This document shows positions 1,528 through 19,382 of a stretch of 32,511 nucleotides of DNA, piece after piece. Within the stretch, counting starts at the first letter, position 1, and each line of letters opens with the position of its first letter. Location of the stretch: NCBI GenBank assembly GCA_964405545.1, contig CAYOOH010000002.1:1-32511 (forward strand), given 5' to 3'. Below the pieces are notes generated by a model. It worked only from the letters and a program-made list of their open reading frames with translations, had not been told where the DNA came from and made no database searches. The position numbers and the translations under genes are program-made. The stretch comes from an uncultured Candidatus Saccharimonadales bacterium. GTDB lineage: Bacteria; Patescibacteriota; Saccharimonadia; UBA4664.

Positions 1528-2388
1528 TTAGGCTTTAGCTTTTCGTCGGCCTTTATCTCGGCCCCACAGCAGCCACTTCTGTTTCCGCGCCCGCTGACTC
1601 TCCTGGGCCAGCTCCTCCGGCACCACTTTATAAAACGACAATCCAACCGCCACTCCCCACAACAGACCAACCACAATTACCAGCTCGGGCCACATCCGCC
1701 AACCCAGATAGCTTGCCCGCTCATACACCAGAACCATACTTCCGAGCCCCAGCCAACCCACAGTCTGGGTCAACACCAGAACTCGGCGCAACACCTGTTT
1801 GATAATCTTAGATCCTCGGTACCGACGGCCCACCCACAACCGAACAACCACCCCGCCCACGAGCATAACAGCAAACACCACCGCGTACGCCAGCATCTCG
1901 GGCCGGCTAGGGAGACTTTGGGCGAACGTCATGAGCCAACCCAGTCGGTCATAGTTAAACAGTCCCGCCAGCACCACGCCCACAATCGCCCCCACTGTCA
2001 CTTCTTGGGGTTGGTGGCCCAAGATCTCGCGCAAATGCACAGCCGGTCGATCCAATCTAACCCGATTGCGCTCTAAGCTGTCGATCAACATATTAATCGC
2101 CACCGCCTGTTCACCCGTTGATCGCCGAACCCCAAACGAGTCGTACATCACAATAGCCGCAAAAATCGCCGCAAAACCAAATAGGTGGCTACCGGCGCCA
2201 TCTATAAGCAGGGCGGTTGTGGCCAACGAACACACCACCGCCGAATGTACACTCGGCATCCCACCCGAGGCATAAAGATAGCGAAAATTGATCCGACCTT
2301 TAAATGCCGCGATTGCAAACTTGGCCACCTGCGCCACGGCCCACGTTGCAAACGGAACTACAATGTAGGGATTATAAACCACCGCCAA
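1528..2388 (-). CDS. Divergent PAP2 family (DUF212/YuiD-like acid phosphatase-related) membrane protein with an extra C-terminal multi-TM extension
   Basis: 286-aa ORF. The family signature GGMPSVHSAVVCSLATT..FAAIFAAIVMYDSFGVRRSTGEQAVAINML matches the GGMPSSHSA..VMYDA.GVRR..G.QA pattern of PF02681-type proteins. About 130 extra hydrophobic residues follow the core. The tracked start is TTG 2388, but AGGAG sits 6 nt upstream of GTG 2382, which is the more likely start. Confidence 0.82.
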   Translation of the reverse strand: MAVVYNPYIVVPFATWAVAQVAKFAIAAFKGRINFRYLYASGGMPSVHSAVVCSLATTALLIDGAGSHLFGFAAIFAAIVMYDSFGVRRSTGEQAVAINMLIDSLERNRVRLDRPAVHLREILGHQPQEVTVGAIVGVVLAGLFNYDRLGWLMTFAQSLPSRPEMLAYAVVFAVMLVGGVVVRLWVGRRYRGSKIIKQVLRRVLVLTQTVGWLGLGSMVLVYERASYLGWRMWPELVIVVGLLWGVAVGLSFYKVVPEELAQESQRARKQKWLLWGRDKGRRKAKA

Positions 2389-2463: not shown

Positions 2464-4713
2464 TTAACGCCGGCGCAACTTGCGGTCAACCGAAGCCATC
2501 ACCCCCGCCAGCAACATGACAACCGCCGACAGCCCAAACAGCATGCTCATGTCCCGACCCTTAGCTTGAGCGGCCGCCCTAGCAGATACCGGCTGCTCAG
2601 CAGCTGCGGTCAGTACTCGGCCGCCAGAAGCAGCAACATCGGGAGTCGGTGCAGCCATCGCGCTCGCGGACACTCCGCTCGACGCGCCCATCGACGAAAC
2701 AGCCACAGGGTCTAGTCCCACTTCCGGCATAACGGCTGCCGCTATTACATGAGCCGCCAAAGGAGTGTTTCCGGCCTCCGAATCATGATTCAGGTCACCC
2801 GTCCAGCCTCCCAAGACGTTGATCACTAGCACCCCAAACCAGTGCTTAACATTCAAAACCGAGTTAACAATATTGGCCACGCTCGAAGTCGCCTGAGCGT
2901 TACCCGTTGATACATTACCAACATTGGTGTTCTGGCGAGCCACCGCGTCACCAGATTGAGCTTCGACATTGACATTATTAGTGATAGTGCCAACTGACTG
3001 AGCGTTAATATTCGTATTGGTCGAGTTGCTGACCGATGACGCATTATTGGAGTCCGCGCCAGTAGTACTCACCTGAGCATTGCCGGTTAGCAACGCCGAA
3101 CCAGTCGCTCCCCCACCCGGTACCGTCATAATCTTGCCAACCCAGTGACCCAAGACATTCACAATCACCAGCACTGCATTGTCACCAAAGATTGAGCTAT
3201 TAGCCAAATTGAACAGCCCCTGAGTGGTATTAGCGACACCCGTAGTAAGATTACCCGCCGTGGTATTAGCCTCAGCGCCAACCGATCCGCTAGTCGCTGA
3301 CGTTGTAATGTTGTTAGCGACTGCTGTAGTGGCGGTGTTATTGATGGTCGTCTGACCGCTGTTACTAACGCCTGCTTGATTAGTCGAGTCAGCACCAGTA
3401 CCGCTCACGCTAGCCGAACTGGGCGTAGCACTCGATGGCACGAGTCCGTTCAAGAAACCGTCCGGGAACAAGATGTCGCCGTTCAAGGTGCCAAAGATGT
3501 TCAAGATGCCAAAGAACGAGCTGCCCGAGCTAATAAACGAGCTGATGAGATTGACAATGTTAGCCTCAGCAAAAACGTTACCCGTAGCAACATTGCCGAC
3601 ATTGGTGTTCCGGCTAGCCGTCGCATCACCAGACTGAGCCGTTAGGTCGACATTATTCACAATATTACCCTGACTCTGAGCGTTTACGTTCAAATCGCTT
3701 GTATTGGTGACGGCCGCACCATTGGTAGAATCGGCCCCCGTCCCACTAACGCTAGCGCTACCGCCCAGCTGACCACCCCCGGTCTGGCTGCCTTCCGTCG
3801 GATTCAAAACAATGTCACCGGTGCAAGTCTGGTTAACCTGGCAAAGTGTTTGGGTAAAGAAATTCAAGTTACCGTGCGCCCATGACCACGCCGAAGCCAA
3901 CAAATTAAACAAGTTGGCAATCACGCTAACCGTACCGGTCGACAGATCACCGGCATGAGTGTTAGAATCAGCCGCTACGTTGCCCGAGCTTGCAGCACTC
4001 TGAAGTGTGTTAATGACATTGACCAAGTTAGTCAAGTCAACCCAGTTCTGCCCGCTGTTGGTAATTTGACCTTGGTTGGTCGATCCCGGTCCTGTCGATG
4101 ACACAATGATACTGTTTTGGCCCTCAAGCAACCCCAATGCCTGAGCCATCTGATAATCCTGCGACCCGACCGTTAAATCCCCCAAGGTCGTATGCACCAC
4201 GCTGGGAGCCGTAAGCATACCCTCTGGAGCTGGCTGGCCTACCGGAATAATCTTGTACCAACCGGTACGACCATCATAGTAGTACTTGGGAGACAAGTAG
4301 TAACCGGTAGTTTTATCACAGCTAAAAGACGCCTTGTCGGCCGCCACCCACTTACTGGTAGCCACATCATAAACCCAGTCAGGGATAGTCCCCCCGCACC
4401 CATCCGGACCTACGTCCGTCGACTTGTGTTTTGGCTTGGGGGTCGTCGATGGTGTCGGCTCCGGAGACGGACTAGCGCTCGGCTGGGGGCTAGGAGAAGG
4501 GGTCGGCGATACCTCGGGGCTGGGTGTTGGGCTTGCCTCAGGAGTCGGCGAGGGACTTGGACTAACGCTAGCCTCCGGGCTTGGCGATGGTGTTGATTCT
4601 GGCGAATCCGCCAAGCCAACACCAGCCCATCCAAGCTGGCCCATCAACAGAACACTTAATGTCAGAATTGAAACTAATCGTTGTTTTTTCACCGGTAACT
4701 GCCTCTCCCCCAT
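2464..4713 (-). CDS. Large secreted/anchored repeat protein (749 aa). It has a signal peptide, a Pro/Ser/Thr linker, a small Cys/Tyr/Trp-rich domain, four tandem units of about 113 aa and a C-terminal TM with a basic tail.
   Basis: Signal peptide KKQRLVSILTLSVLLMGQLGWAGVGLA, then a SPSPSPTPEASPTPSPEV linker, then GYYLSPKYYYDGRTGWYKI, which loosely resembles a cell-wall-binding repeat. Repeat heads are STGPGSTN (aa 206), SGTGADSTN (323), SGTGADSTN (437) and STTGADSNN (549). The C-terminus is MSMLFGLSAVVMLLAGVMASVDRKLRRR. Confidence 0.75.
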   Translation of the reverse strand: MGERQLPVKKQRLVSILTLSVLLMGQLGWAGVGLADSPESTPSPSPEASVSPSPSPTPEASPTPSPEVSPTPSPSPQPSASPSPEPTPSTTPKPKHKSTDVGPDGCGGTIPDWVYDVATSKWVAADKASFSCDKTTGYYLSPKYYYDGRTGWYKIIPVGQPAPEGMLTAPSVVHTTLGDLTVGSQDYQMAQALGLLEGQNSIIVSSTGPGSTNQGQITNSGQNWVDLTNLVNVINTLQSAASSGNVAADSNTHAGDLSTGTVSVIANLFNLLASAWSWAHGNLNFFTQTLCQVNQTCTGDIVLNPTEGSQTGGGQLGGSASVSGTGADSTNGAAVTNTSDLNVNAQSQGNIVNNVDLTAQSGDATASRNTNVGNVATGNVFAEANIVNLISSFISSGSSFFGILNIFGTLNGDILFPDGFLNGLVPSSATPSSASVSGTGADSTNQAGVSNSGQTTINNTATTAVANNITTSATSGSVGAEANTTAGNLTTGVANTTQGLFNLANSSIFGDNAVLVIVNVLGHWVGKIMTVPGGGATGSALLTGNAQVSTTGADSNNASSVSNSTNTNINAQSVGTITNNVNVEAQSGDAVARQNTNVGNVSTGNAQATSSVANIVNSVLNVKHWFGVLVINVLGGWTGDLNHDSEAGNTPLAAHVIAAAVMPEVGLDPVAVSSMGASSGVSASAMAAPTPDVAASGGRVLTAAAEQPVSARAAAQAKGRDMSMLFGLSAVVMLLAGVMASVDRKLRRR
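2794..4101 (-). repeat. Four tandem coding repeats of about 113 aa in the 749-aa protein (a polar module of about 65 aa plus a hydrophobic or aromatic segment of about 45 aa)
   Basis: Repeat heads at aa 206, 323, 437 and 549 give a period of 112-117 aa. Conserved positions are TG[AP][DG]S.N, [AQ].SG[DNS] and NT..G......G. The hydrophobic tails include LISSFISSGSSFFGILNIFG, VLVIVNVLGHWVGKI and WFGVLVINVLGGWTGD. Confidence 0.8.
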
Positions 4714-4769
4714 TAGACGAACATAATATGTCTAAGACTGTAATTATACACAAATATCAGATGATTGCT

Positions 4770-4789
4770 GACGAGGGCAAGCCCTCGTC
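4770..4789 (-). terminator. Stem-loop immediately downstream of the 195-aa module protein gene (terminator or mRNA stabiliser)
   Basis: GACGAGGG CUUG CCCUCGUC is an 8-bp stem in the minus sense. A TATAAT box (4743-4748) lies just downstream and could re-initiate transcription for the 749-aa gene. Confidence 0.45.
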
Positions 4790-4806
4790 ATAACTACAAA
4801 CCGACT

Positions 4807-5394
4807 CTAGTTGTGAAGAGAAAGGGTAGTAGTGGTGGTGCTGGTGTTACCAGCGTTGCCCGAAGTCAAGCCACCGACATTGGTGTTCTTGTAGGCACTG
4901 ACGTTACCGCTCTGAGCGGATTGCAGGTTGGTGTTCTGGACCTCAACAACGTTGACGTTGGTGGTCTTAACCGACTGCTTATTGCTTACATCGACCTTGT
5001 TGCTGGAATCAGCGCCAGTGTCGGAGATGGTTACGCTCGGCATGTCCATCGACATACCAGCCAAAGAACCAAGAACATCGGCCCCGCCGTTGGTCACAGC
5101 CACGGTCGTGGTGGTCATGTTGTTGTTGGTAGCATTACCGGAACCGTTGGAACCGGTAACGTTGGTGTTCTTGTCAGCCTTGACGTCACCAGAGGCAGCG
5201 CCCTGAGCGTTTAGGTTACCTACGCCAACCTCGTTCAGGTTGGTGGTGCTAACACGGCTGCTGTTGCTCAGCGTAACGTGGTTGTGCGAGTCGGCGCCCG
5301 TGTCACCAACAGAAACGGAGCTAGCGGCTGCAAAGCCAGCCAGGCTCAAACTTGCCATACCAATGGCGGCGTAACGAAGTACAGATGCTTTCAT
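4807..5394 (-). CDS. Small secreted protein (195 aa) made of two copies of the TGADSxN...SG...NTNxG module; candidate major subunit of the surface operon
   Basis: Signal peptide MKASVLRYAAIGMASLSLAGFAAASS. The two modules are VGDTGADSHNHVTLSN..AASGDVKADKNTNVTGSNGSGNA and ISDTGADSSNKVDVSN..AQSGNVSAYKNTNVGGLTSGNA. A good SD (AAAGGA) lies 7 nt upstream of the ATG. GC hairpins flank the gene on both sides. Confidence 0.75.
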   Translation of the reverse strand: MKASVLRYAAIGMASLSLAGFAAASSVSVGDTGADSHNHVTLSNSSRVSTTNLNEVGVGNLNAQGAASGDVKADKNTNVTGSNGSGNATNNNMTTTTVAVTNGGADVLGSLAGMSMDMPSVTISDTGADSSNKVDVSNKQSVKTTNVNVVEVQNTNLQSAQSGNVSAYKNTNVGGLTSGNAGNTSTTTTTLSLHN

Positions 5395-5434
5395 CTGAAG
5401 TCCTTTCGTTTAATGTTAATTTGGATCTTAGTAC

Positions 5435-5450
5435 CGGGCCCGAGGGCCCG
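5435..5450 (-). promoter_or_regulatory. All-GC intercistronic hairpin upstream of the 195-aa module protein gene
   Basis: CGGGCC CUCG GGCCCG (minus sense) lies in the 64-nt spacer between 5459 and 5394. Confidence 0.35.
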
Positions 5451-5458
5451 CGCTCTGG

Positions 5459-5947
5459 CTAGTTCGACGAGTTATCCGAATAGCTTGAGCTAGCACTAAA
5501 GACATTGGTGCTTGAGAAGCTCGTCGACGTTCCATGGTCGGTCGAGCTGAAAATCTGCGTTGAGTTCCAGCTATTACCATCATTAGACTGGACGTCCACC
5601 TTCAGGTCATTACCATTCTGATTCGAAGAAACGCTAGAGTCGTCCCGAGAACTAGCCGAAATGGTCGTTTGGCCAGCCGAGACATGCACCTTGGCCTTAC
5701 CGGGAGACAACTCCATAGTCGCCTCACCGTCCGGGCCGACTACAACGCGCCGACCATTAACCATCACCTGAGGCGTCGGACTTGGTGATGCCTCGTGAGC
5801 CGACACCGAAGTAGTGTTGACGGCCGACGGAGACGCGGGCGAGCCCGACTCGGCCATACTCACTGCCGCCACTGCCAATGTCAACGGCACCGCAAGCAAC
5901 AATTGGGGACCTAGCTTCTTGATCTGTTTCGAACGTGCTTCATTCAT
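5459..5947 (-). CDS. Secreted Ser/Thr-rich protein (162 aa), unknown function
   Basis: N-terminal signal peptide KKLGPQLLLAVPLTLAVAAVSMA and a Ser-rich C-terminal half. The start lies 2 nt after the stop of the upstream gene, so it belongs to the same operon. Confidence 0.6.
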   Translation of the reverse strand: MNEARSKQIKKLGPQLLLAVPLTLAVAAVSMAESGSPASPSAVNTTSVSAHEASPSPTPQVMVNGRRVVVGPDGEATMELSPGKAKVHVSAGQTTISASSRDDSSVSSNQNGNDLKVDVQSNDGNSWNSTQIFSSTDHGTSTSFSSTNVFSASSSYSDNSSN

Positions 5948-5949
5948 AA

Positions 5950-6612
5950 CTAAACCTTTCCCTCTTTGCGCCGTCCATAGACGGCAGTACCAACAGCTCC
6001 AGCCAAGCTAAGCAAAGCAGCCAGAGTCAATACCAGACCAGCAGCCGTACTCGTCTGCTTAGCGACGGACACCGGCAAAACCGGACGCCCTGCATCAAAA
6101 GCCGCCCGCAAAGCCGATACATCTACCGGACTCAATGGACCCGTTACTGGCAAAACCGCGCTTCCCGCACCACGGCCAGCCGAAACGCCGAGAACACTGC
6201 CATTCTGACCTGCAACCACGGGAGCGCTGTTGTCATTCGACGGTCCACCGCCACCAGGCGTTTGATCGCCACCCTGCGGAGCGCCACCATTGGTATCATT
6301 CCCAATGCTCACCACTTGGCTGGTTGTGTTATTGTTGGTCGCCTCACCCGAGACAAGTCCGGTCGAGCCGCCAGCATTTGTGTTACTAGAGACTAGCACA
6401 CTACCCGAGGTCGAATTCTGCAAACTCTCGTTGGCAATCACCACGGTATTAACATTCGTTGTCGAGCTGTCAGTCACATTAGTGATGGATACCTCATTAT
6501 CCGAGCCGGCTCCCGTGTTAGTCACATCAGTACTGGCAAATGCTCCACTTGCAAGCGTCAAACTAAGACCACAGGCAACCGATAACGATCCTGCAAATCG
6601 CATAAACTTCAT
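5950..6612 (-). CDS. Secreted/anchored protein (220 aa) with one TGAGSDN...SG...NTNAG module, an LPVTG motif and a C-terminal TM with a basic tail
   Basis: Signal peptide MKFMRFAGSLSVACGLSLTLASGAFA. Module: VTNTGAGSDNEVSITN..STSGSVLVSSNTNAGGSTGLVSGEA. LPVTG is at aa 154-158 (nt 6139-6153). The C-terminus is AAGLVLTLAALLSLAGAVGTAVYGRRKEGKV. A strong SD (AAAGGAGGAA) precedes the ATG, and the start overlaps the upstream stop (TAATG at 6612). Confidence 0.75.
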   Translation of the reverse strand: MKFMRFAGSLSVACGLSLTLASGAFASTDVTNTGAGSDNEVSITNVTDSSTTNVNTVVIANESLQNSTSGSVLVSSNTNAGGSTGLVSGEATNNNTTSQVVSIGNDTNGGAPQGGDQTPGGGGPSNDNSAPVVAGQNGSVLGVSAGRGAGSAVLPVTGPLSPVDVSALRAAFDAGRPVLPVSVAKQTSTAAGLVLTLAALLSLAGAVGTAVYGRRKEGKV

Positions 6613-7586
6613 TACAATTCCTCCTTTCTAAAAGCATTGGGGACAAAAAACATCATTTTGGAAATTTCGTTTCTGACACCATCAAAAATCGAGCCCTGGC
6701 AGTGCGCTAGCGACAGTACAGAACTCGATAAAAAGGGTGTAGCAAAAGGAAAAACCATCTTAGTGGAACTCACGGTATCGCTTCGTGCAGCATGAGCAAA
6801 CCCAGATCTCCGCATCCATGCGCCGTAGCTAGAAACAAACAACTGAGTCGCCAGCAACAATAAAGCAACAGGAGCAAGCGCCAACTCGCCAAGCTCAGTT
6901 CCCTTGGTCAAAAAGCCAACCAAAACCGGCACCACGGTCGCCGCCAAGCGAGCTGTTAAACTACCAAAGAGACCCGTAGCCTTAGGCTTAACAGGGGCCT
7001 TAGTCGGCTCAGGTAGCGACGGCATTGTCGAAGCCAAGTCCTCAACAACCGGAGCAGTCCGGTTGGTAATCGTGGGTTTAACGATCAAAATTGCCGAGCG
7101 ATAACCGGCCGACCGCTGACCCGATATTGCAACCGGTACCGCAATAGTAACCGAGGCTTGAGCCAAAGCTGCCTTGCCCACCATCTCCGAACCCGGTTTA
7201 GCCGCAGCTAAATCCGCCCCACCGGCATCAGGCAACGTTTCTTGACTCGGCAATTGCTTATCCAACTCAGGTCCTATTGCCGAAGACTGAGGAACCACCT
7301 GATCCGAAGTCGCAACCGTAGAGGAGCTATCGCTCGATGCATCAGCCTGACCCTCCGTCTCCTTCGCCTGACCCACAATCGGAGCAGCTAAGCTTGAGCT
7401 AGAGGAGAGGATGGTCTGCTCATTCACTTGATCCGAAATAATCTGCATACCTACCGATTGAGTAGTCGTAGTCGCACTGCCATCAGCAGCAAGAGCACTA
7501 CCACTCAATACCAACGCCACACTGCCACCGGCAGCGAGCCCAACCACAAGCTGAACAGACGTAACTAACCTCATGCGACCCTTCAA
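6612..7586 (-). CDS. Secreted/membrane protein (about 320 aa), first gene of the surface operon, unknown function
   Basis: Signal peptide MRLVTSVQLVVGLAAGGSVALVLSGSALA, a Ser/Ala/Gln-rich middle region and C-terminal hydrophobic segments (LAATVVPVLVGFL, LALAPVALLLLATQLFV). The tracked start is TTG 7586. ATG 7574, preceded by GAAGGG, is the more likely start. Confidence 0.55.
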   Translation of the reverse strand: MKGRMRLVTSVQLVVGLAAGGSVALVLSGSALAADGSATTTTQSVGMQIISDQVNEQTILSSSSSLAAPIVGQAKETEGQADASSDSSSTVATSDQVVPQSSAIGPELDKQLPSQETLPDAGGADLAAAKPGSEMVGKAALAQASVTIAVPVAISGQRSAGYRSAILIVKPTITNRTAPVVEDLASTMPSLPEPTKAPVKPKATGLFGSLTARLAATVVPVLVGFLTKGTELGELALAPVALLLLATQLFVSSYGAWMRRSGFAHAARSDTVSSTKMVFPFATPFLSSSVLSLAHCQGSIFDGVRNEISKMMFFVPNAFRKEEL

Positions 7587-10309: not shown

Positions 10310-12541
<2,232 letters not shown>

Positions 12542-12544
12542 CTA

Positions 12545-14017
12545 ATGTTTCCCAAAATCGTCTCTCGACTTTCCTTATCGCCATCCGCCCTCTCGGATAT
12601 GGCCTTTTACGCTCGGCGACTCAAGCAAGAATCGGTCACGCGCGCCTTTTCCGCCGTCGCTGCCGTCCTCATCATTGGTCTGCAATTTGCCGTCGTTGCC
12701 GCTCCACCCACGCCCACCAACGCCGCCTCCTCTAGCGACATTATCTACGGCGGCTTCACCTCCAAAGCCGATTTGCTCAACCGCTACGATGCCAGCACCG
12801 AGCTCAAAGCCCTCTACACCTACTTCGGTATCTCTCGCCAAGACCTCGCCAACACCCAATCCGCCCAAATCAATTCCCGCGACCATAGCCTCAACTCACT
12901 TGGCCGCGTCCAGCATGCGTCCAGTGATCAAGAAGTAGTAGTTGGCACCTACCACTACTGGGCGCGTTACCTCTACCAGTTTGACACCGGCTCCAATATC
13001 CAAACCGGTTCCTACTACAATGTTCTCCAAGGCAAACGAGCCAGCGACGGCAGCTACTTTGCCGTCATATTTCACTGCGGCAATCTAGTGTTCAAGAAAC
13101 TCCCACCCAAGCCAACACCCCCGCCACCGCCCAAGCCCTCCCCATCCCCGTCTCCCTCACCATCGCCCACCCCCAATACCGTCGCCTGCCTCAAACTAAC
13201 CGGCAGCCCCACCCAAGGCGAGATCCCGCTCACCGTCACCGTCACCGGCCAAGGCAAAGCCACCGGCCAAACCATCGACCAATACCAATTCAACTTTGGT
13301 GACAGCACCATAACAGAGCAGCCGAGCGCCACCACCACCCACACCTACACCAAGGCCGGCACCTATACCGTTGTGCTTAAGATCAGGGGATCCAAGGGAA
13401 CCGTTTCGCCCCTTGCCGCCGCCTGCACTCTCACTATCAAGCCCACTACTCCACCAGCCGCTTTTACTAAATCAAAATCCGCTCTCAACACCACTCAGAC
13501 CATCGACGCCACCACCGCTCCCGCCCATGCCGGCGACATCATTCGCTATAGCCTCACCACCAAGAACATCGGCGGCACGGCCCAAGACTACACCGTCGTT
13601 GAGCATATCGAGGACATCCTCGAGTACGCCGACGTCACCGACCCAACCGACGCCGTCATTAAGGACGGGGTCATGACCTGGCCAGCCGTTTCCATCGCCC
13701 CCGGCAAATCACTCATCAAAACCTTCACCGTCAAAATTAAGGATCCCATCCCGGCCACCCCTGTCGGTGTCTCGGACAAATTCTCCTACGACCTGCGCAT
13801 GGACAACGTCTACGGCAACGACGTCCGTATTACCCTCGAGCCACCCCTGGCTAAACAAGTCGAAGGCGCCAGCACCGTCATGCCCGCCACTGGCCCCAGT
13901 ACCTCCAGTTTTATCGTCATCGTCGTAGTCAGCCTCTGCCTCTACTTTTACTTCCGCAACCGTCAGCTAGCAACCGAAGTCAAGCTGCTACGCGGCCATT
14001 ATCAAGGAGCCCTCTAA
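12545..14017 (+). CDS. Cell-surface protein with an N-terminal TM, a Pro/Ser linker, a PKD-like domain, a DUF11/CARDB-like repeat and an LPXTG-like (MPATG) sorting signal
   Basis: TM AFSAVAAVLIIGLQFAVVAA and a linker PPKPTPPPPPKPSPSPSPSPSPTP. PKD-like signature IPLTVTVTGQG..YQFNFGDST..HTYTKAGTYTVVLKIRG. DUF11-like signature AGDIIRYSLTTKNIGGTAQDYTVVEHI. MPATG (13880-13894) is followed by FIVIVVVSLCLYFYF and RNRQ. The tracked start is GTG 12539. ATG 12545 is preferred because it sits 7 nt after TGTTACAAT. Confidence 0.75.
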   Translation: MFPKIVSRLSLSPSALSDMAFYARRLKQESVTRAFSAVAAVLIIGLQFAVVAAPPTPTNAASSSDIIYGGFTSKADLLNRYDASTELKALYTYFGISRQDLANTQSAQINSRDHSLNSLGRVQHASSDQEVVVGTYHYWARYLYQFDTGSNIQTGSYYNVLQGKRASDGSYFAVIFHCGNLVFKKLPPKPTPPPPPKPSPSPSPSPSPTPNTVACLKLTGSPTQGEIPLTVTVTGQGKATGQTIDQYQFNFGDSTITEQPSATTTHTYTKAGTYTVVLKIRGSKGTVSPLAAACTLTIKPTTPPAAFTKSKSALNTTQTIDATTAPAHAGDIIRYSLTTKNIGGTAQDYTVVEHIEDILEYADVTDPTDAVIKDGVMTWPAVSIAPGKSLIKTFTVKIKDPIPATPVGVSDKFSYDLRMDNVYGNDVRITLEPPLAKQVEGASTVMPATGPSTSSFIVIVVVSLCLYFYFRNRQLATEVKLLRGHYQGAL

Positions 14018-14627: not shown

Positions 14628-17600
14628 CTACTCCCCAATAATTACATTACCTCGCTCATCTACAAACACCTCGCCCGGAGCCAACTTCTTGGGCTGCTCT
14701 ATTCTTGGCGCATCTACATTCGCCGCCGGCCCCTCGCTCGTCGGCATAATCAGCGTACCCGTCAAAGCCCCCGCCTCCTCCTGAGCTTCCGTGGGACTAT
14801 TATGAATCTCCTCCTGGGTGCTCTCAATCTGCTCAGCTGGCTTATCGGGTAATCGCTTATGCCGGACATGCGTCTCAACCGGTTTCATGTCTTCGACCGG
14901 AGCAGAATCGGAAACCACCGCCGCCACTCCCTCCGCGGCCACCGGCCCCAAATTGGACAAACGATCGCGCTTGGCCTGCGCTACATCAGAAACAGCTAAC
15001 GATTCGGCAGGCGGTAGGCCACCGTCCTCCTGCACCGGTAGCGGCACCTCGGCCAAAGCCGGCGCCAAAACCCCGGCCGAACCCGCCGGCTTAGGCGCCG
15101 CTATGGCCCCCACAGGCGCAGAGGTCGACTCACGCACAGTCGCCGGTAAGGGTGACAAAACCGGCTCACGTGCGGTCGCCGGCGCCCACGTAGCCACCGG
15201 TGCCGACGCCGGGCCGGCCAACACCCCACCCTGCGGTTCCAAAACTGCCACCGGCCTAGACACGTCGACCGGCCTCGCCGCCTCAACCCCCGGCTGCGCC
15301 AAGCCGGCCGGAGCCATGGGGACGGGGGCAAGCGGTAGCGTTGGCATTGGCGGTGGTGGTGCAGGCTGAGGAACCGAAACCGGCTCCAGCCTTGACCGAG
15401 AAGGAGGCATTACCGGTGCTACCGGCTGCGGCAAGACTGACGCCCGACCATTCGACGGCAACAACGACATGCTCAATAAGTCATCAATCTGTCGCTCCGT
15501 GTCTTCGACCGGACCAGATGCACCCCCCAAAGGCACAGCCGACACGCTTATCCCCGATGCCCCCCTGTCATTCTCAGTCGTCGACCCACCGGCAATCGGA
15601 GCCGTCGCGCCCCGATCAGGCTCCATTCCAGACTGCACTGACGCCGCCCCCTGCTGCTCAACAGACCTACCCACCGGAGGAGCTGCCAAAACCGCCGGCT
15701 CGACCGCGGCCAAACCAACCGCCGGCACTGCTCCACCCAACACATCAATACCAGCGTAAGGATCACCAGGTAACGGCTGAGCAACGCCCCCACCCATACC
15801 CATAGCACCACCACCCACAGCGCCGCCATTCACCGCTGGCTCACTCGTCGGCCTTGGCGCCGGCATACCCAACACATCGATCCCCGCGTAAGGATCCCCT
15901 GGCAGCGGTGCCGCCCCCGCAACCATCGCGCTCCCATCGGCACCAGACTCACCCCCGGCTGGCACTCCAACTCCGGCCCCACTCCCGCGACTGCCGCTCA
16001 TAGCCGAATCAACCGCAACCGGAGCCTGCCGCGGCGGTCTGCCCCCGGTAATATCCCGAAAAGACAGCGTACCCGGTGCCGGAGGAACAGCCGCAGCCGC
16101 AACAGCCGGCGCCACCCCCGCCGTCGCCGCTCCGGGCATTGCAGCCGCCCCAGGCATCGGCCCGACCATCGCTCCCGGCCCGACGGCCGCCCCAGGCATC
16201 GGCCCCACCGCCCGCGCCATGCTAGGGGGCAAATCCACCGGCGGCGCCCCGATCGGCGGCGGCATCATCGCCATCTGAGGCAAGCTCGCCGCCGAACCCG
16301 CAACACTACCACTCCCCAAAGCCGTATCCGCCCCAGGCGCCGCATAACCTCCCGCCGCCCCAGACACAGGTACCGCCGGCCAAGTTCCCGCCACCGCCCC
16401 CACCCCCGGACCAACCTGAGTGCTAGGTGCAGCCGCAACCCCACCGCCCGCCATTCCTGCACCCCCAGGGGCCATCCCCCCCACCGAAGCAAAATCTGCG
16501 CCCGGCACACCCGAGGCACCCGCTGCGACAACCGCGCCATTCGCCGTATTACCCCAGCTTGCGCCCCCAGCAGCCGGCGGCACCATTGCCGCAGTGGCTG
16601 GCGCTGTACCACTAGCCCCTACCACACCCGCTCCGTTAACCGCACCACTACCACCAACTCCAGTCGCCCCTACCGCCGAGCCGCCATTCATCGCCGACCC
16701 ACTCATCCCCCCGCTGCCGCCCAACGCCGTCGCCCTCGCTCCAGCCGGCGCCATACCACCAGACGCCACGTCACCAGTTCCACTCACATTCGGCGCCCCC
16801 ACGCCGCTCCCGGCCCCACTAGCCCCCGGCCCTCCCGCCGGCCCGCTCGCCCCTCCTGCTCCCGGCCCACTCACGCTTGACCCCGCGCCACCAGCCGCTC
16901 CCGGTGCCACCGGCGTCGATAGCTTTGGCGCTGGCGTTCCCGGCGCTCGACCCGTAAATCGCTCCACAATATCGGCTTCCACCACCGACTTCGCCCGGCC
17001 AAACTTAGCAGCGCTCAACTGCTTAATCGCTACCCCCAGCTCCGCATTGGCACCCGCAATCGGCGCCGAATCTTTAATCGTAAACGGCTGCGACGGCAGC
17101 CCTCCAATCATCAGTCGCATAGCTGCATTAAAGTTAGGCAAATTCATCAAATCCGACGCATCAAACACGGGCGCAAACTGCTTTACCATAAACTCGGCAT
17201 CCTCCGGCCCCATCCGGTGCGCTACAATCGTCCCAATATTGCCAAACACCGCATCCCGAATCTGCTGGCTCAACTGACCAATAAACTGGTTGGCTACAAT
17301 CAAGTTCAGTCGGTATTTCCGGGCCTCGCTCAAAATACTGGCAAAACTATCCGTCGAAAAATTCTGAAACTCATCCACATACAAACAAAAATCCGCCCGT
17401 TGGTCCTCCGGCACCTCCGCCCGGCTCATCGCTGCCGCCTGGAACTTGATCACAAAAATCATACCCAACAGCTGCGAGTTCAGCTCGCCAATCCGGCCCT
17501 TACTCAAGTTCACGATCAAAATCTTCTTCTGATCCATAATGTCGCGAATATTAAAAGCCGACTTAGTCTGGCCGATAATATTGCGCATCATCTCGTTGTT

Positions 17601-19382
17601 CTGGAACGCCCCAAACTTACTCACAAACCAGCCCAGCATCTCGCTCTTGTGGTAATCGCTCGTCTGGCCCATCTCTTTGGTCCAAAAATCAATCACCGTC
17701 GGATCCTTCAAGTACTTAAACTTCTTCTTTAAGTACTCCGTATCGGTAAACACTTTCGGAATCTCAATAAACGTCGCCCCATTCGGATCGCTCATCAACG
17801 TCAGTGCCGCATTCCGATACCAATGCTCATACCGCGGCCCAATAATGCCCGTATGCCCCGGGTCATACAGCTTGTACAGCATATTAATCGTCTCTTGAAC
17901 CAAGAAATCCTTCTGCGCCGGATCCGTAAACTCAAACAAGTTCAGCCCGAGCGGGTACTCCATGTCCGACGGATTAAAGTACACCACATCCTCCGCCCGC
18001 TCCTTTGGCACCATACTCAAAAGCTTCTCGGCGCTATCCCCATGCGGATCAATAAAAGCAAACCCATTGCCGGCTCTCATATCCTGGACTACCAAATTCT
18101 CCAGCATCGTCGACTTACCCGTACCCGTCTGGCCCAAAATATAGGTATGTCGCCGCCGATCCTCAGGACTTAGCCGGATCTCTTTTTGCACCCCCCGGAA
18201 CTCATTATGACCAAACAATAACCCCGTCGCCGGCAACTGGACCGGCCCGTCCACCTGCTTGCTCTGCAGCCGCTCTACACTGGCACTGGGCGTAAACTGC
18301 GAATCCGGCAAATGAAACAACGTCGCCAGCTCCACGCTATTTAAGACATTACTCTTGAGCTCCGGCGGAAAAAACCGAAAGATAAAAGCCGTCACCAGCC
18401 CTTGCACGTCCAGCGCCGGCAAGAACTTAAACCCATTCACACCCGGCGCCTCAAACAGCGCAAAAGCCGTCGCAATATCCCGCAACAGCTGCTGACTCCG
18501 CACCACCGACCCCGTCGATACCACCACCCGAACCAACACCTCAAACCCCGGATGCTTTGTCTTCTCCTCGATCGCCTCCACCTCGGCCAGCTCCAGATTA
18601 GACACCTCCTTGCCACCTGTCCGCGCCTGCTCCTCCTGTCGCCGCTGCTCCGGCGACTTAACAGCCGCCTTAACCAAATCGCCAGCCGTAAACGCCAAAC
18701 TCTCATGCCGCCCCTTGCGCTTAGAATCAGCCACCTTAACCGACCGCTTCGTCCATTTCGGGTCGGCTGGCCTCAGCATAATCTGGACCGCGGCCCCATC
18801 CTGCTTATCCAACGCCGCAATCGTCGTTAACAGCGCCTCCATCGGATCGCGCTCCAGCTTAGCGTAGGTCGCAATCGGGTAGGCACTCTCGGCCCGCAGC
18901 ACCATCTCGCCCCCCAACGTGGCCGCCAGTCGGCCTTCCTGGTTAAAGATATTGTGGTCCTCCACCTCCTCCAGGCGCGCCCCCGGATAAGCCGTCACCA
19001 CCGCCTTCTTCACGACGCTCACCAGCGCCACCGGTACCGCCACAAAGAAATGCACCACGCCTTCAATTGCAATCAACTCCAACGCCACATGCCGCTGGCC
19101 ATAAAAATTACTCTTAAAACCCTCAACAGCCGTACCGGCCAACAGATTGTACAGCACCTCAGCCTGCGACGTCTTCTCGCGCATCACCTCCCGGATATCA
19201 CGCGACCCGGCGGCCGTATCCGAGCTCGGCGGGGGCAAATGGATGAGCACCGGCACCATCTTGAGTCCCCGCTCAATTGCCTTGGCCCGCCGCAGCTTCC
19301 GCCGATACGTCACAAAAGCCACCACCCCCAACCCGCCGGCTAGGCCAAAAAACACTACAAAAACCAGTATAATACCGCTCAC
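14628..19382 (-). CDS. Giant (1584 aa) membrane-anchored VirD4/TraD/TraG-like (type IV coupling-protein-like) P-loop ATPase fused to a Gly/Ala/Pro-rich low-complexity C-terminal region of about 750 aa
   Basis: N-terminal TM IILVFVVFFGLAGGLGVVAFV followed by YRRKLRRAK. Walker A YILGQTGTGKST is at aa 417-425 (nt 18108-18134). Walker B FCLYVDEFQNF is at nt 17358-17384. LNLIVANQFIGQLSQQIRDAVFGNIGTIVAHRMG resembles the Q..QL region of coupling proteins. From about aa 811 onward the sequence is GAGGASGPAGGPGASGAGSG-type. The start is GTG. Confidence 0.8.
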   Translation of the reverse strand: MSGIILVFVVFFGLAGGLGVVAFVTYRRKLRRAKAIERGLKMVPVLIHLPPPSSDTAAGSRDIREVMREKTSQAEVLYNLLAGTAVEGFKSNFYGQRHVALELIAIEGVVHFFVAVPVALVSVVKKAVVTAYPGARLEEVEDHNIFNQEGRLAATLGGEMVLRAESAYPIATYAKLERDPMEALLTTIAALDKQDGAAVQIMLRPADPKWTKRSVKVADSKRKGRHESLAFTAGDLVKAAVKSPEQRRQEEQARTGGKEVSNLELAEVEAIEEKTKHPGFEVLVRVVVSTGSVVRSQQLLRDIATAFALFEAPGVNGFKFLPALDVQGLVTAFIFRFFPPELKSNVLNSVELATLFHLPDSQFTPSASVERLQSKQVDGPVQLPATGLLFGHNEFRGVQKEIRLSPEDRRRHTYILGQTGTGKSTMLENLVVQDMRAGNGFAFIDPHGDSAEKLLSMVPKERAEDVVYFNPSDMEYPLGLNLFEFTDPAQKDFLVQETINMLYKLYDPGHTGIIGPRYEHWYRNAALTLMSDPNGATFIEIPKVFTDTEYLKKKFKYLKDPTVIDFWTKEMGQTSDYHKSEMLGWFVSKFGAFQNNEMMRNIIGQTKSAFNIRDIMDQKKILIVNLSKGRIGELNSQLLGMIFVIKFQAAAMSRAEVPEDQRADFCLYVDEFQNFSTDSFASILSEARKYRLNLIVANQFIGQLSQQIRDAVFGNIGTIVAHRMGPEDAEFMVKQFAPVFDASDLMNLPNFNAAMRLMIGGLPSQPFTIKDSAPIAGANAELGVAIKQLSAAKFGRAKSVVEADIVERFTGRAPGTPAPKLSTPVAPGAAGGAGSSVSGPGAGGASGPAGGPGASGAGSGVGAPNVSGTGDVASGGMAPAGARATALGGSGGMSGSAMNGGSAVGATGVGGSGAVNGAGVVGASGTAPATAAMVPPAAGGASWGNTANGAVVAAGASGVPGADFASVGGMAPGGAGMAGGGVAAAPSTQVGPGVGAVAGTWPAVPVSGAAGGYAAPGADTALGSGSVAGSAASLPQMAMMPPPIGAPPVDLPPSMARAVGPMPGAAVGPGAMVGPMPGAAAMPGAATAGVAPAVAAAAVPPAPGTLSFRDITGGRPPRQAPVAVDSAMSGSRGSGAGVGVPAGGESGADGSAMVAGAAPLPGDPYAGIDVLGMPAPRPTSEPAVNGGAVGGGAMGMGGGVAQPLPGDPYAGIDVLGGAVPAVGLAAVEPAVLAAPPVGRSVEQQGAASVQSGMEPDRGATAPIAGGSTTENDRGASGISVSAVPLGGASGPVEDTERQIDDLLSMSLLPSNGRASVLPQPVAPVMPPSRSRLEPVSVPQPAPPPPMPTLPLAPVPMAPAGLAQPGVEAARPVDVSRPVAVLEPQGGVLAGPASAPVATWAPATAREPVLSPLPATVRESTSAPVGAIAAPKPAGSAGVLAPALAEVPLPVQEDGGLPPAESLAVSDVAQAKRDRLSNLGPVAAEGVAAVVSDSAPVEDMKPVETHVRHKRLPDKPAEQIESTQEEIHNSPTEAQEEAGALTGTLIMPTSEGPAANVDAPRIEQPKKLAPGEVFVDERGNVIIGE
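14703..16952 (-). other. Compositionally biased (Gly/Ala/Pro/Val/Ser) region of the giant ATPase gene, predicted to be intrinsically disordered
   Basis: Read directly from the translation, about aa 811-1560. The many long antisense and alternate-frame ORFs in the track here (for example 16420..17277 +) are by-products of this bias. Confidence 0.8.
15736..15908 (-). repeat. Duplicated 14-aa motif PLPGDPYAGIDVLG inside the ATPase low-complexity tail
   Basis: The copies are encoded at 15736-15776 and 15868-15908, 132 nt (44 aa) apart. The peptide is identical in both, and the DNA differs at several synonymous positions. Confidence 0.85.

Follow-up and report, generated by a model that had tools for sequence, protein, structure and literature searches.

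A conserved five-gene envelope operon of Saccharimonadia built on a new domain family

Here, we describe five consecutive open reading frames (ORFs) on the minus strand (positions 7586 to 2464) of a 32,511-nucleotide (nt) stretch of DNA from a soil Saccharimonadia bacterium; this whole stretch is referred to below as the window. The ORFs are co-oriented and tightly packed, and the source organism is confirmed to be of the candidate phyla radiation (CPR) type, as a first-pass annotation of the sequence had suspected. The genes form a real envelope operon that is conserved and had no previous annotation; it rests on a new domain family, a polar module that is present in three of the five products. 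In order along the minus strand, the operon consists of p324 (6612 to 7586), p220 (5950 to 6612), p162 (5459 to 5947), p195 (4807 to 5394), and p749 (2464 to 4713). We favor, with about an even chance of being right, the interpretation that this is a lineage-specific Saccharimonadia envelope locus making a protein surface structure, with p195 as a free, abundant subunit that p220 and p749, both anchored, would retain at the surface. A single assembly formed by the free and the anchored module proteins is the most economical reading. CPR bacteria (Patescibacteria), which live attached to other cells, make up much of bacterial diversity, and their surface-forming proteins are almost unknown beyond type IV pili and Pam pili. 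The family described here comprises about 1,600 clusters (50% identity), has no counterpart in Pfam, NCBIfam, or the PDB, and occurs in Saccharimonadia within a fixed five-gene operon.

The shared module is about 75 amino acids (aa) long, Cys-free, and polar (Asn/Thr/Ser). Four copies in p749, two in p195, and one in p220 had been counted by eye, and the same count was returned by a hidden Markov model (HMM) built from several hundred copies, with independent E-values between 1e-23 and 7e-12; the HMM found zero domains in all other ORFs of the window. The modules lie at nt 3877-4125, 3523-3765, 3184-3429, and 2845-3096 in p749, at nt 5086-5337 and 4810-5046 in p195, and at nt 6295-6537 in p220, and BLASTP comparisons among the three proteins gave E-values of 1e-8 to 1e-22. 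The pattern [ST]xTG[AP][DG]SxN matches p749 at aa 205, 323, 437, and 549, which defines a repeat unit of 112-118 aa, and also matches p195 at aa 124 and p220 at aa 31; the first p195 copy (GDTGADSHN) is one position off and is missed by it. The full signature runs from TG[PA]xSxN through alternating N/V positions to QxAxSG, NT, and finally G and [ST]G. Numbered on 903 copies, the core starts with T6 G7 [PA]8 x S10 x N12, continues into a long strand with strict period-2 conservation (V24 N26 N28 V30 V32 N34 x Q38 A40 S42 G43; 2.54 versus 0.98 bits at alternate positions), and ends with [AV]45, [AV]47, N50 T51, G54, [ST]58 G59, and N69 L70 N72. After each of its modules, p749 has some 35 further aa of hydrophobic character (...NIINLINSFIxSGSSFFGILNIFGNLNGDILFP...), an extension that is missing from p195 and p220.

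Among 1.84 billion cluster representatives (50% identity clusters), a profile search with the module retrieved 1,600 proteins at E ≤ 1e-3, of which 647 also passed a cutoff of E ≤ 1e-10, with one to six or more modules per protein. Those relatives that could be named were all "hypothetical" proteins from Saccharimonadia or Patescibacteria metagenome-assembled genomes (MAGs), cluster look-ups almost never giving names, and a third homology search with the module profile yielded only 6 short proteins of little taxonomic breadth. The first-pass annotation had been unable to assign the module to a named family, and it does lie outside the families covered by Pfam-A, NCBIfam, PDB sequence and profile searches, and Foldseek, all of which were without a match. 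Scans of the five proteins and 10 diverse module proteins against Pfam and NCBIfam gave low-complexity noise only (PARP, SslE, and GspB to the Pro/Ser linker). PDB sequence and profile searches with the module, p324, and p162 likewise gave no match, returning hits to the Pro/Ser-rich region and a weak one to 4r03 only. Foldseek of the full p749 model found no match at E < 0.1 in the PDB or BFVD and none at E < 1 in the PDB; the p195 model was below the level usable for a fold search. No description of the module family was found in literature searches. Among the module paralogues, the stand-alone multi-module proteins P0071 and P0072 (locus L025 and others) carry Trp/Tyr/Gln/Asn-rich inserts between modules (e.g., ...WGSWDPVSCRQTMGFGQWW...), and others (P0081, P0087, and P0110) are highly acidic, of an NDTTGADSDN... 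type.

The operon is conserved as a block. Thirty loci (L001 to L030) were fetched; the signal-peptide patterns used for retrieval of further loci led to close relatives only. Co-conservation of the five genes across relatives was borne out, since the block is kept in about 16 distinct Saccharimonadia/Patescibacteria MAG loci in the fixed order gyrB-gyrA-p324-p220-p162-p195-p749-DUF212. Median identity to the window was highest for the flanking genes (gyrA, 83%; gyrB, 75%; DUF212, 60%), followed by p195 and p749 (53% each) and then p220 (39%), p162 (34%), and p324 (32%). In distant low-GC CPR lineages (L004, L024, L026, L029, and L030), the core consists of two genes, one for a free multi-module protein and, immediately downstream, one for an anchored protein with modules plus extension. 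The distant locus L023 likewise has the free-plus-anchored cassette.

All five gene products begin with a signal-peptide-like segment, in which a sequence reading combined with a hydropathy scan showed basic residues, a hydrophobic run, and an AxA-like site. In p162, this segment could instead be a signal anchor. All five are extracytoplasmic or membrane proteins, and on these points the initial description holds. It is equally exact on the TAATG stop/start overlap of p324 and p220 at position 6612 and on the 2-nt gap at 5948-5949. The three module proteins differ in how they end. The smallest, p195, consists of a signal peptide and two modules, is anchor-free, and has a mature size of about 17 kDa; 69 close homologues of about 195 aa were found. 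Its signal peptide (MKxSVLRYAAIGMATLSLAGFAAAS, aa 1-25) is conserved above the mature part, with 19 invariant positions in 12 sequences, and may be a specialized export or targeting signal. An RRY motif occurs in p220 at the equivalent position.

In p220, the signal peptide and single module are followed by a Gly/Pro-rich linker, an LPVTG motif (aa 154-158; nt 6103-6153 together with PVDVSALRA), a C-terminal transmembrane (TM) helix (aa 193-211; nt 5977-6036), and an RRKEGKV tail. This layout (module, Gly-rich linker, LP[VEAQT][TV]G[AP]SxP[VM]DVSALRA, TM helix, and RR tail) is the same in 12 of 12 orthologues. The sorting-like signal LPx[TV]G is newly recognized here, having been absent from the first reading of the sequence. 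With its signal peptide, passenger domain, flexible stalk, LPVTG motif, hydrophobic helix, and basic tail, p220 resembles the LPXTG surface proteins of Gram-positive bacteria; it differs from them in that, in p220 of the window type, the fourth motif position is often Val and an insert of 38 aa (PVDVSALRA...) precedes the helix. The canonical spacing of motif and helix was seen only in a one-module homologue of locus L030, which has LPNTG, a hydrophobic helix, and a YRRF end. There (L030:11268-13771, minus strand), the LPNTG protein is followed by genes for a sortase (Pfam E = 1.7e-13) and a GT2 glycosyltransferase, in a group divergent from a trio of p162-like, p195-like, and p749-like genes. 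Sortases are encoded in CPR genomes (PMC7143001). Because of the conserved LPx[TV]G layout, the sortase gene adjoining the L030 homologue, and the presence of sortases in CPR bacteria, p220 is a probable sortase substrate and wall anchor.

The large protein, p749, has 248 homologues and combines the signal peptide with a Pro/Ser-rich segment, a 2-Cys Trp/Tyr-rich domain (aa 106-157; nt 4243-4398; WVFD...GYYLSPKYYYDxRTGWY), and the four module units. Its C-terminal part carries an [LM]PxVG motif (nt 2692-2730), VLTAAA (nt 2599-2616), and the TM anchor that had been predicted for it, a helix at aa 724-742 (nt 2488-2544) with a basic KLRRR tail. The motif [LM]PxVG...PVxVS is related to the LPx[TV]G motif of p220. 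A cell-wall-binding-like segment had also been proposed for p749, and the profile matches of its N-terminal Trp/Tyr-rich segment were limited to weak ones to OCRE (E = 0.011, below the Pfam cutoff) and to PDB entry 4r03, an uncharacterized protein (E = 0.003).

The alternating residues of the module had prompted the guess of a beta-solenoid, which is disfavored by covariation. Mean-field direct coupling analysis (DCA) of 903 non-identical module copies gave antiparallel contacts (i + j = constant) in two ladders, one pairing strand 1-5 with strand 12-16 about the TGPDS turn and the other forming a long hairpin of 26-48 with 53-74 about the NT turn. The strongest pairs sum to about 17 and about 100, as in antiparallel strands, a pattern that beta-arches also give; the TGPDS loop is in contact with both SG motifs. 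Long antiparallel strands were likewise predicted by AlphaFold2 (AF2). In the p749 model (alignment of 73 sequences), the confidence score (pLDDT) was above 90 in the core of each unit, the strands span about 30 residues, a small N-terminal domain is folded with confidence (pLDDT of about 90), and a C-terminal helix occupies aa 723-748. By comparison, p195 (alignment of 43 sequences) was modeled as all-beta with low confidence (pLDDT of 50.6). Covariation and modeling together favor an elongated antiparallel beta-meander with long hairpins, and the difference between the p749 cores and p195 alone would fit a subunit in need of a partner.

The p195 gene is set off from its neighbors by RNA signals. 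It has a good Shine-Dalgarno (SD) sequence (AAAGGA) and is bracketed by the two GC hairpins noted in the first reading, CGGGCCCTCGGGCCCG at 5435-5450 and TGACGAGGGCTTGCCCTCGTCA at 4769-4790, both of which are real and conserved across loci. The 5' stem-loop (CGGGCCYNCGGGCCCGG; 5432-5453, minus strand) lies some 40 nt 5' of the start codon of p195, has a YNCG tetraloop, and follows the consensus GCGGGCCYNCGGGCCCGGWACUA, the stem being invariant in 17 of 18 aligned loci, with compensatory variants in L012. The window has a single copy of its 17-mer, against 0 expected by chance, and so does each of 21 loci (about 16 of these distinct) among the 30 retrieved, in the range L001 to L023 and always just 5' of p195. 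The hairpin is retained even in loci that lack p162 or whose proteins share only about 50% identity. Its role could lie in transcript stabilization, processing, or termination, or in binding a protein. The 3' stem-loop (4769-4790, minus strand), located 3' of the p195 stop codon, is GC-rich, with folding energies of -15 to -25 kcal/mol, and was found at the same site in 18 of 18 loci with differing sequences, which indicates that the structure rather than the sequence is conserved. It was missed by a terminator scan because it is missing a T-run; for the same reason, the hairpins were ruled out as canonical intrinsic terminators. Beyond it lie the motif GCAAYYATC (4761-4768), conserved among loci, and, in the window, a TATAAT box (4743-4748), which suggests that p749 has its own promoter. 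The database call for p749 is 742 aa, and its true start is probably GTG 4692, 3' of a conserved SD sequence (GGGGAGAGG) at 4702-4710; this apparent promoter and SD sequence were absent from the earlier reading. Major pilin and S-layer genes are expressed as discrete, stabilized, high-level messages, and S-layer genes classically have a stabilizing 5' stem-loop and a 3' hairpin. The conserved flanking hairpins of p195 fit a separately stabilized, highly expressed subunit gene, and its message would be discrete, stabilized, and more abundant than those of its neighbors.

The two module-free products are membrane or exported proteins. The p324 ORF as listed opens with TTG, and its true start is probably the ATG at 7574 (MRLV..., as in orthologues). 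It encodes a signal peptide, an ectodomain that is variable and rich in Ser, Thr, and Ala, a pair of TM helices at aa 205-223 and aa 235-253, and a conserved cytoplasmic motif, YGxWLRRGGYAHAARSD...FATP, in which G251, R255, G258, A262, A263, R264, S265, and D266 are invariant among orthologues; it had no match in Pfam or the PDB. In two MAGs, the orthologues of p324 and p220 are joined in frame into one ORF (L011:5647-7413, 588 aa; L017:4747-6462, 571 aa), with sequencing error possible. These fusions, together with the TAATG coupling, give a Rosetta-stone hint that p324 and p220 act together. The p162 product combines a beta domain (aa 61-98; nt 5654-5767), which is small and conserved, with a tail rich in Ser and Asn, and it was also without a match in Pfam or the PDB. 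It was rejected as a degenerate module protein (module HMM negative; hhalign probability of 0.1% against the module) and is presumed to be an accessory protein.

In the assembly that we favor, p195 would be made from its own stabilized transcript, exported by Sec, and would then bind to or polymerize on anchored module copies via the conserved Asn/Val face of its long beta-hairpins. p749 would serve as a membrane-anchored scaffold in which the hydrophobic extension of the four units gives a stably folded core, and p220 would carry its single module on a stalk rich in Gly, with a sortase as the probable agent of its attachment to peptidoglycan; both would offer the module as docking or nucleation sites. 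Assembly or tethering at the membrane would fall to p162 and to the polytopic p324, which is translationally coupled and at times fused to p220. Such a system would give the monoderm CPR cell a coat or short fibrils. A role for such a structure in host contact is speculation. We regard as improbable a wider version of this scheme, in which the operon would represent a CPR-wide, undescribed class of surface polymer: a secreted two-module protein joined by beta-sheet complementation to sortase- or membrane-anchored copies, with two membrane helpers, that would constitute the unexplained outer layer or short fibrils of Saccharimonadia and their contact point with hosts.

Several points weigh against the proposed assembly. 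Assembly, abundance, and surface location are predictions here, drawn from gene content and modeled structures. Both p220 and p162 are missing from L021, and multi-module genes stand alone without partners in L025, L027, and L028, which indicates that the module is able to function outside the operon. The z-scores of the hairpins, both of which are without a T-run, are modest (z = -2.6 for the 3' hairpin), and their role in expression is inferred. The low AF2 confidence for p195 may merely stem from its shallow alignment (43 sequences). As for anchoring, the conserved 38-aa insert between LPVTG and the TM helix of p220 is atypical for sortase signals, the LPXTG-anchor HMMs of Pfam and NCBIfam (PF00746 and TIGR01167) had no match to p220, and no sortase gene was found within the 32.5-kb window.

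One alternative is that p749, p195, and p220 are independent paralogous adhesins or binders of host cells, polysaccharide, or mineral, clustered through duplication and co-regulation. The stand-alone multi-module genes in unrelated contexts are in keeping with this, as is the variation in module number from 1 to 6 or more, which is typical of adhesin repeats; homologues are labeled "trimeric autotransporter adhesin" by one source and "mucin7-like" by another, and the distal Pro/Ser-rich segment and separate N-terminal domain of p749 could bind a ligand. However, p195, having no anchor or other domain, could not serve on its own as a link to the cell. The block also keeps the same genes in the same order across large distances, among them two membrane proteins that have no module and, in some loci, a gene fusion, and p195 and p749 are fairly conserved (53%), their variable face not being hypervariable as in host-range adhesins. 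We consider independent adhesins unlikely. Any suspicion that the ORFs are low-complexity artefacts, raised by their biased composition and by long overlapping ORFs on the opposite strand, has practically no chance of being correct and is refuted by the full-length homologues, which number in the hundreds and in which domain boundaries, signal peptides, anchors, and synteny are all conserved.

Two further alternatives concern the kind of structure that p195 would form. Were it a functional amyloid subunit in the manner of CsgA, Fap, or the chaplins, it would build a cross-beta fiber nucleated by its anchored paralogues. Its Asn/Gln/Ser/Gly/Ala-rich sequence with a conserved period-2 Asn/Val ladder, the presence of a free major paralogue and anchored paralogues in one locus, and its poor prediction as a monomer would all suit an amyloid, and FapC and CsgA were among the top, non-significant Foldseek matches. 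Those matches had E-values above 3, however, no match was found to Curlin_rpt, Chaplin, or other amyloid families, and hhalign of the module against Escherichia coli CsgA gave a probability of 0.2%. The mixed parity of the contacts and the strands modeled by AF2 are better explained by antiparallel, hydrogen-bonded hairpins in a 75-aa domain than by 20-aa beta-arches, and an amyloid is in our view quite unlikely. A two-dimensional lattice like that of a surface layer (S-layer), formed by p195 with or without p749 and corresponding to the diffuse "outer layer" of Saccharibacteria in cryo-electron tomography, would agree with a secreted, anchor-free protein whose gene has a 5' stem-loop and a 3' hairpin, a trait of S-layer genes. 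An outer layer of unknown composition is present on CPR cells (PMC11880426), and S-layer proteins have been predicted in Patescibacteria (bioRxiv 10.1101/2024.05.28.596244). Nevertheless, the mature p195 (about 17 kDa) is far smaller than typical S-layer proteins, SLH or other known anchoring domains were not found with Pfam or NCBIfam, and Foldseek gave no structural match to S-layer proteins; we rate a lattice as slightly less likely still than an amyloid.

The favored assembly of a free subunit on anchored paralogues has counterparts in known systems. In Streptomyces, which is also monoderm, the chaplins (ChpA-H) are paralogues with one small beta-rich domain, of which long, sortase-tethered and short, secreted members build a surface layer; tethered p220 (LPVTG) and p749 and free p195 match this trait, a resemblance of function only. 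The Chaplin family (PF03777) had no match, the chaplin domain is about 40 aa long, hydrophobic, and has two Cys residues, whereas the module is about 75 aa long, polar, and Cys-free, and the chaplins have no counterparts of p324 and p162. Curli (CsgA/CsgB) and Fap likewise encode a major secreted subunit together with an anchored homologous nucleator, with imperfect Asn/Gln/Ser/Gly-rich repeats and one conserved strand face. Homology to curli was rejected, as PF07012 was without a match at E ≤ 1 in p195, p220, p749, and 10 diverse module proteins, in line with the hhalign result given above. Proteins of the csgG/E/F-type secretion and assembly families had no match among the operon or window proteins, and curli differ further in having an outer-membrane secretion channel, absent from this monoderm, repeats of about 20 aa rather than 75 aa, and a parallel solenoid rather than antiparallel hairpins. 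The G5-E rods of SasG/Aap, C-terminally anchored surface proteins, are tandem polar modules that form long, thin antiparallel beta-sheets. The tandem polar modules of p749, predicted to be long and antiparallel, and its C-terminal anchor recall these rods, from which p749 differs in having no match to Pfam G5.

That "hypothetical" Saccharimonadia operons can encode new appendages is illustrated by the Pam pili of "Candidatus Mycosynbacter amalyticus," surface filaments made of CPR-restricted, formerly unannotated signal-peptide proteins encoded in a conserved operon with accessory proteins (bioRxiv 10.64898/2026.03.03.709456). The Pam pilins are two-domain Ig-like proteins of 39-55 kDa that assemble by donor-strand exchange, with chaperone-like PamC/D and an operon beside ATP synthase genes (bioRxiv 10.64898/2026.03.03.709456). 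Identity with Pam pili, compared by description only, was rejected on size (195 aa and two modules in p195), fold, and context (gyrB-gyrA/DUF212). The proposed working principle of free subunits on anchored paralogues is already known, and what is new is the domain family. Should an outer coat or fibrils be confirmed, the operon would open the envelope structure and host contact of the phylum to molecular study and would add a new beta-fold and assembly principle.

The operon is flanked in the window by gyrA and gyrB upstream and, 75 nt after p749, by a gene for a DUF212 (divergent PAP2) membrane protein (1528 to 2388, minus strand; PF02681, E = 5.5e-39). The DUF212 gene is downstream of the p749 orthologue in most fetched loci, and its product may be functionally linked to the operon. 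Divergent from gyrB is a gene for a PKD-domain protein (12539 to 14017, plus strand), an arrangement also seen in L005, L006, and L029. Farther along, a 1584-aa ORF (14628 to 19382, minus strand) combines a VirD4/TrwB-type coupling-protein ATPase core with a Gly/Ala/Pro-rich low-complexity tail of about 750 aa, which lifts the local GC content to 67-72%, compared to about 55% elsewhere.

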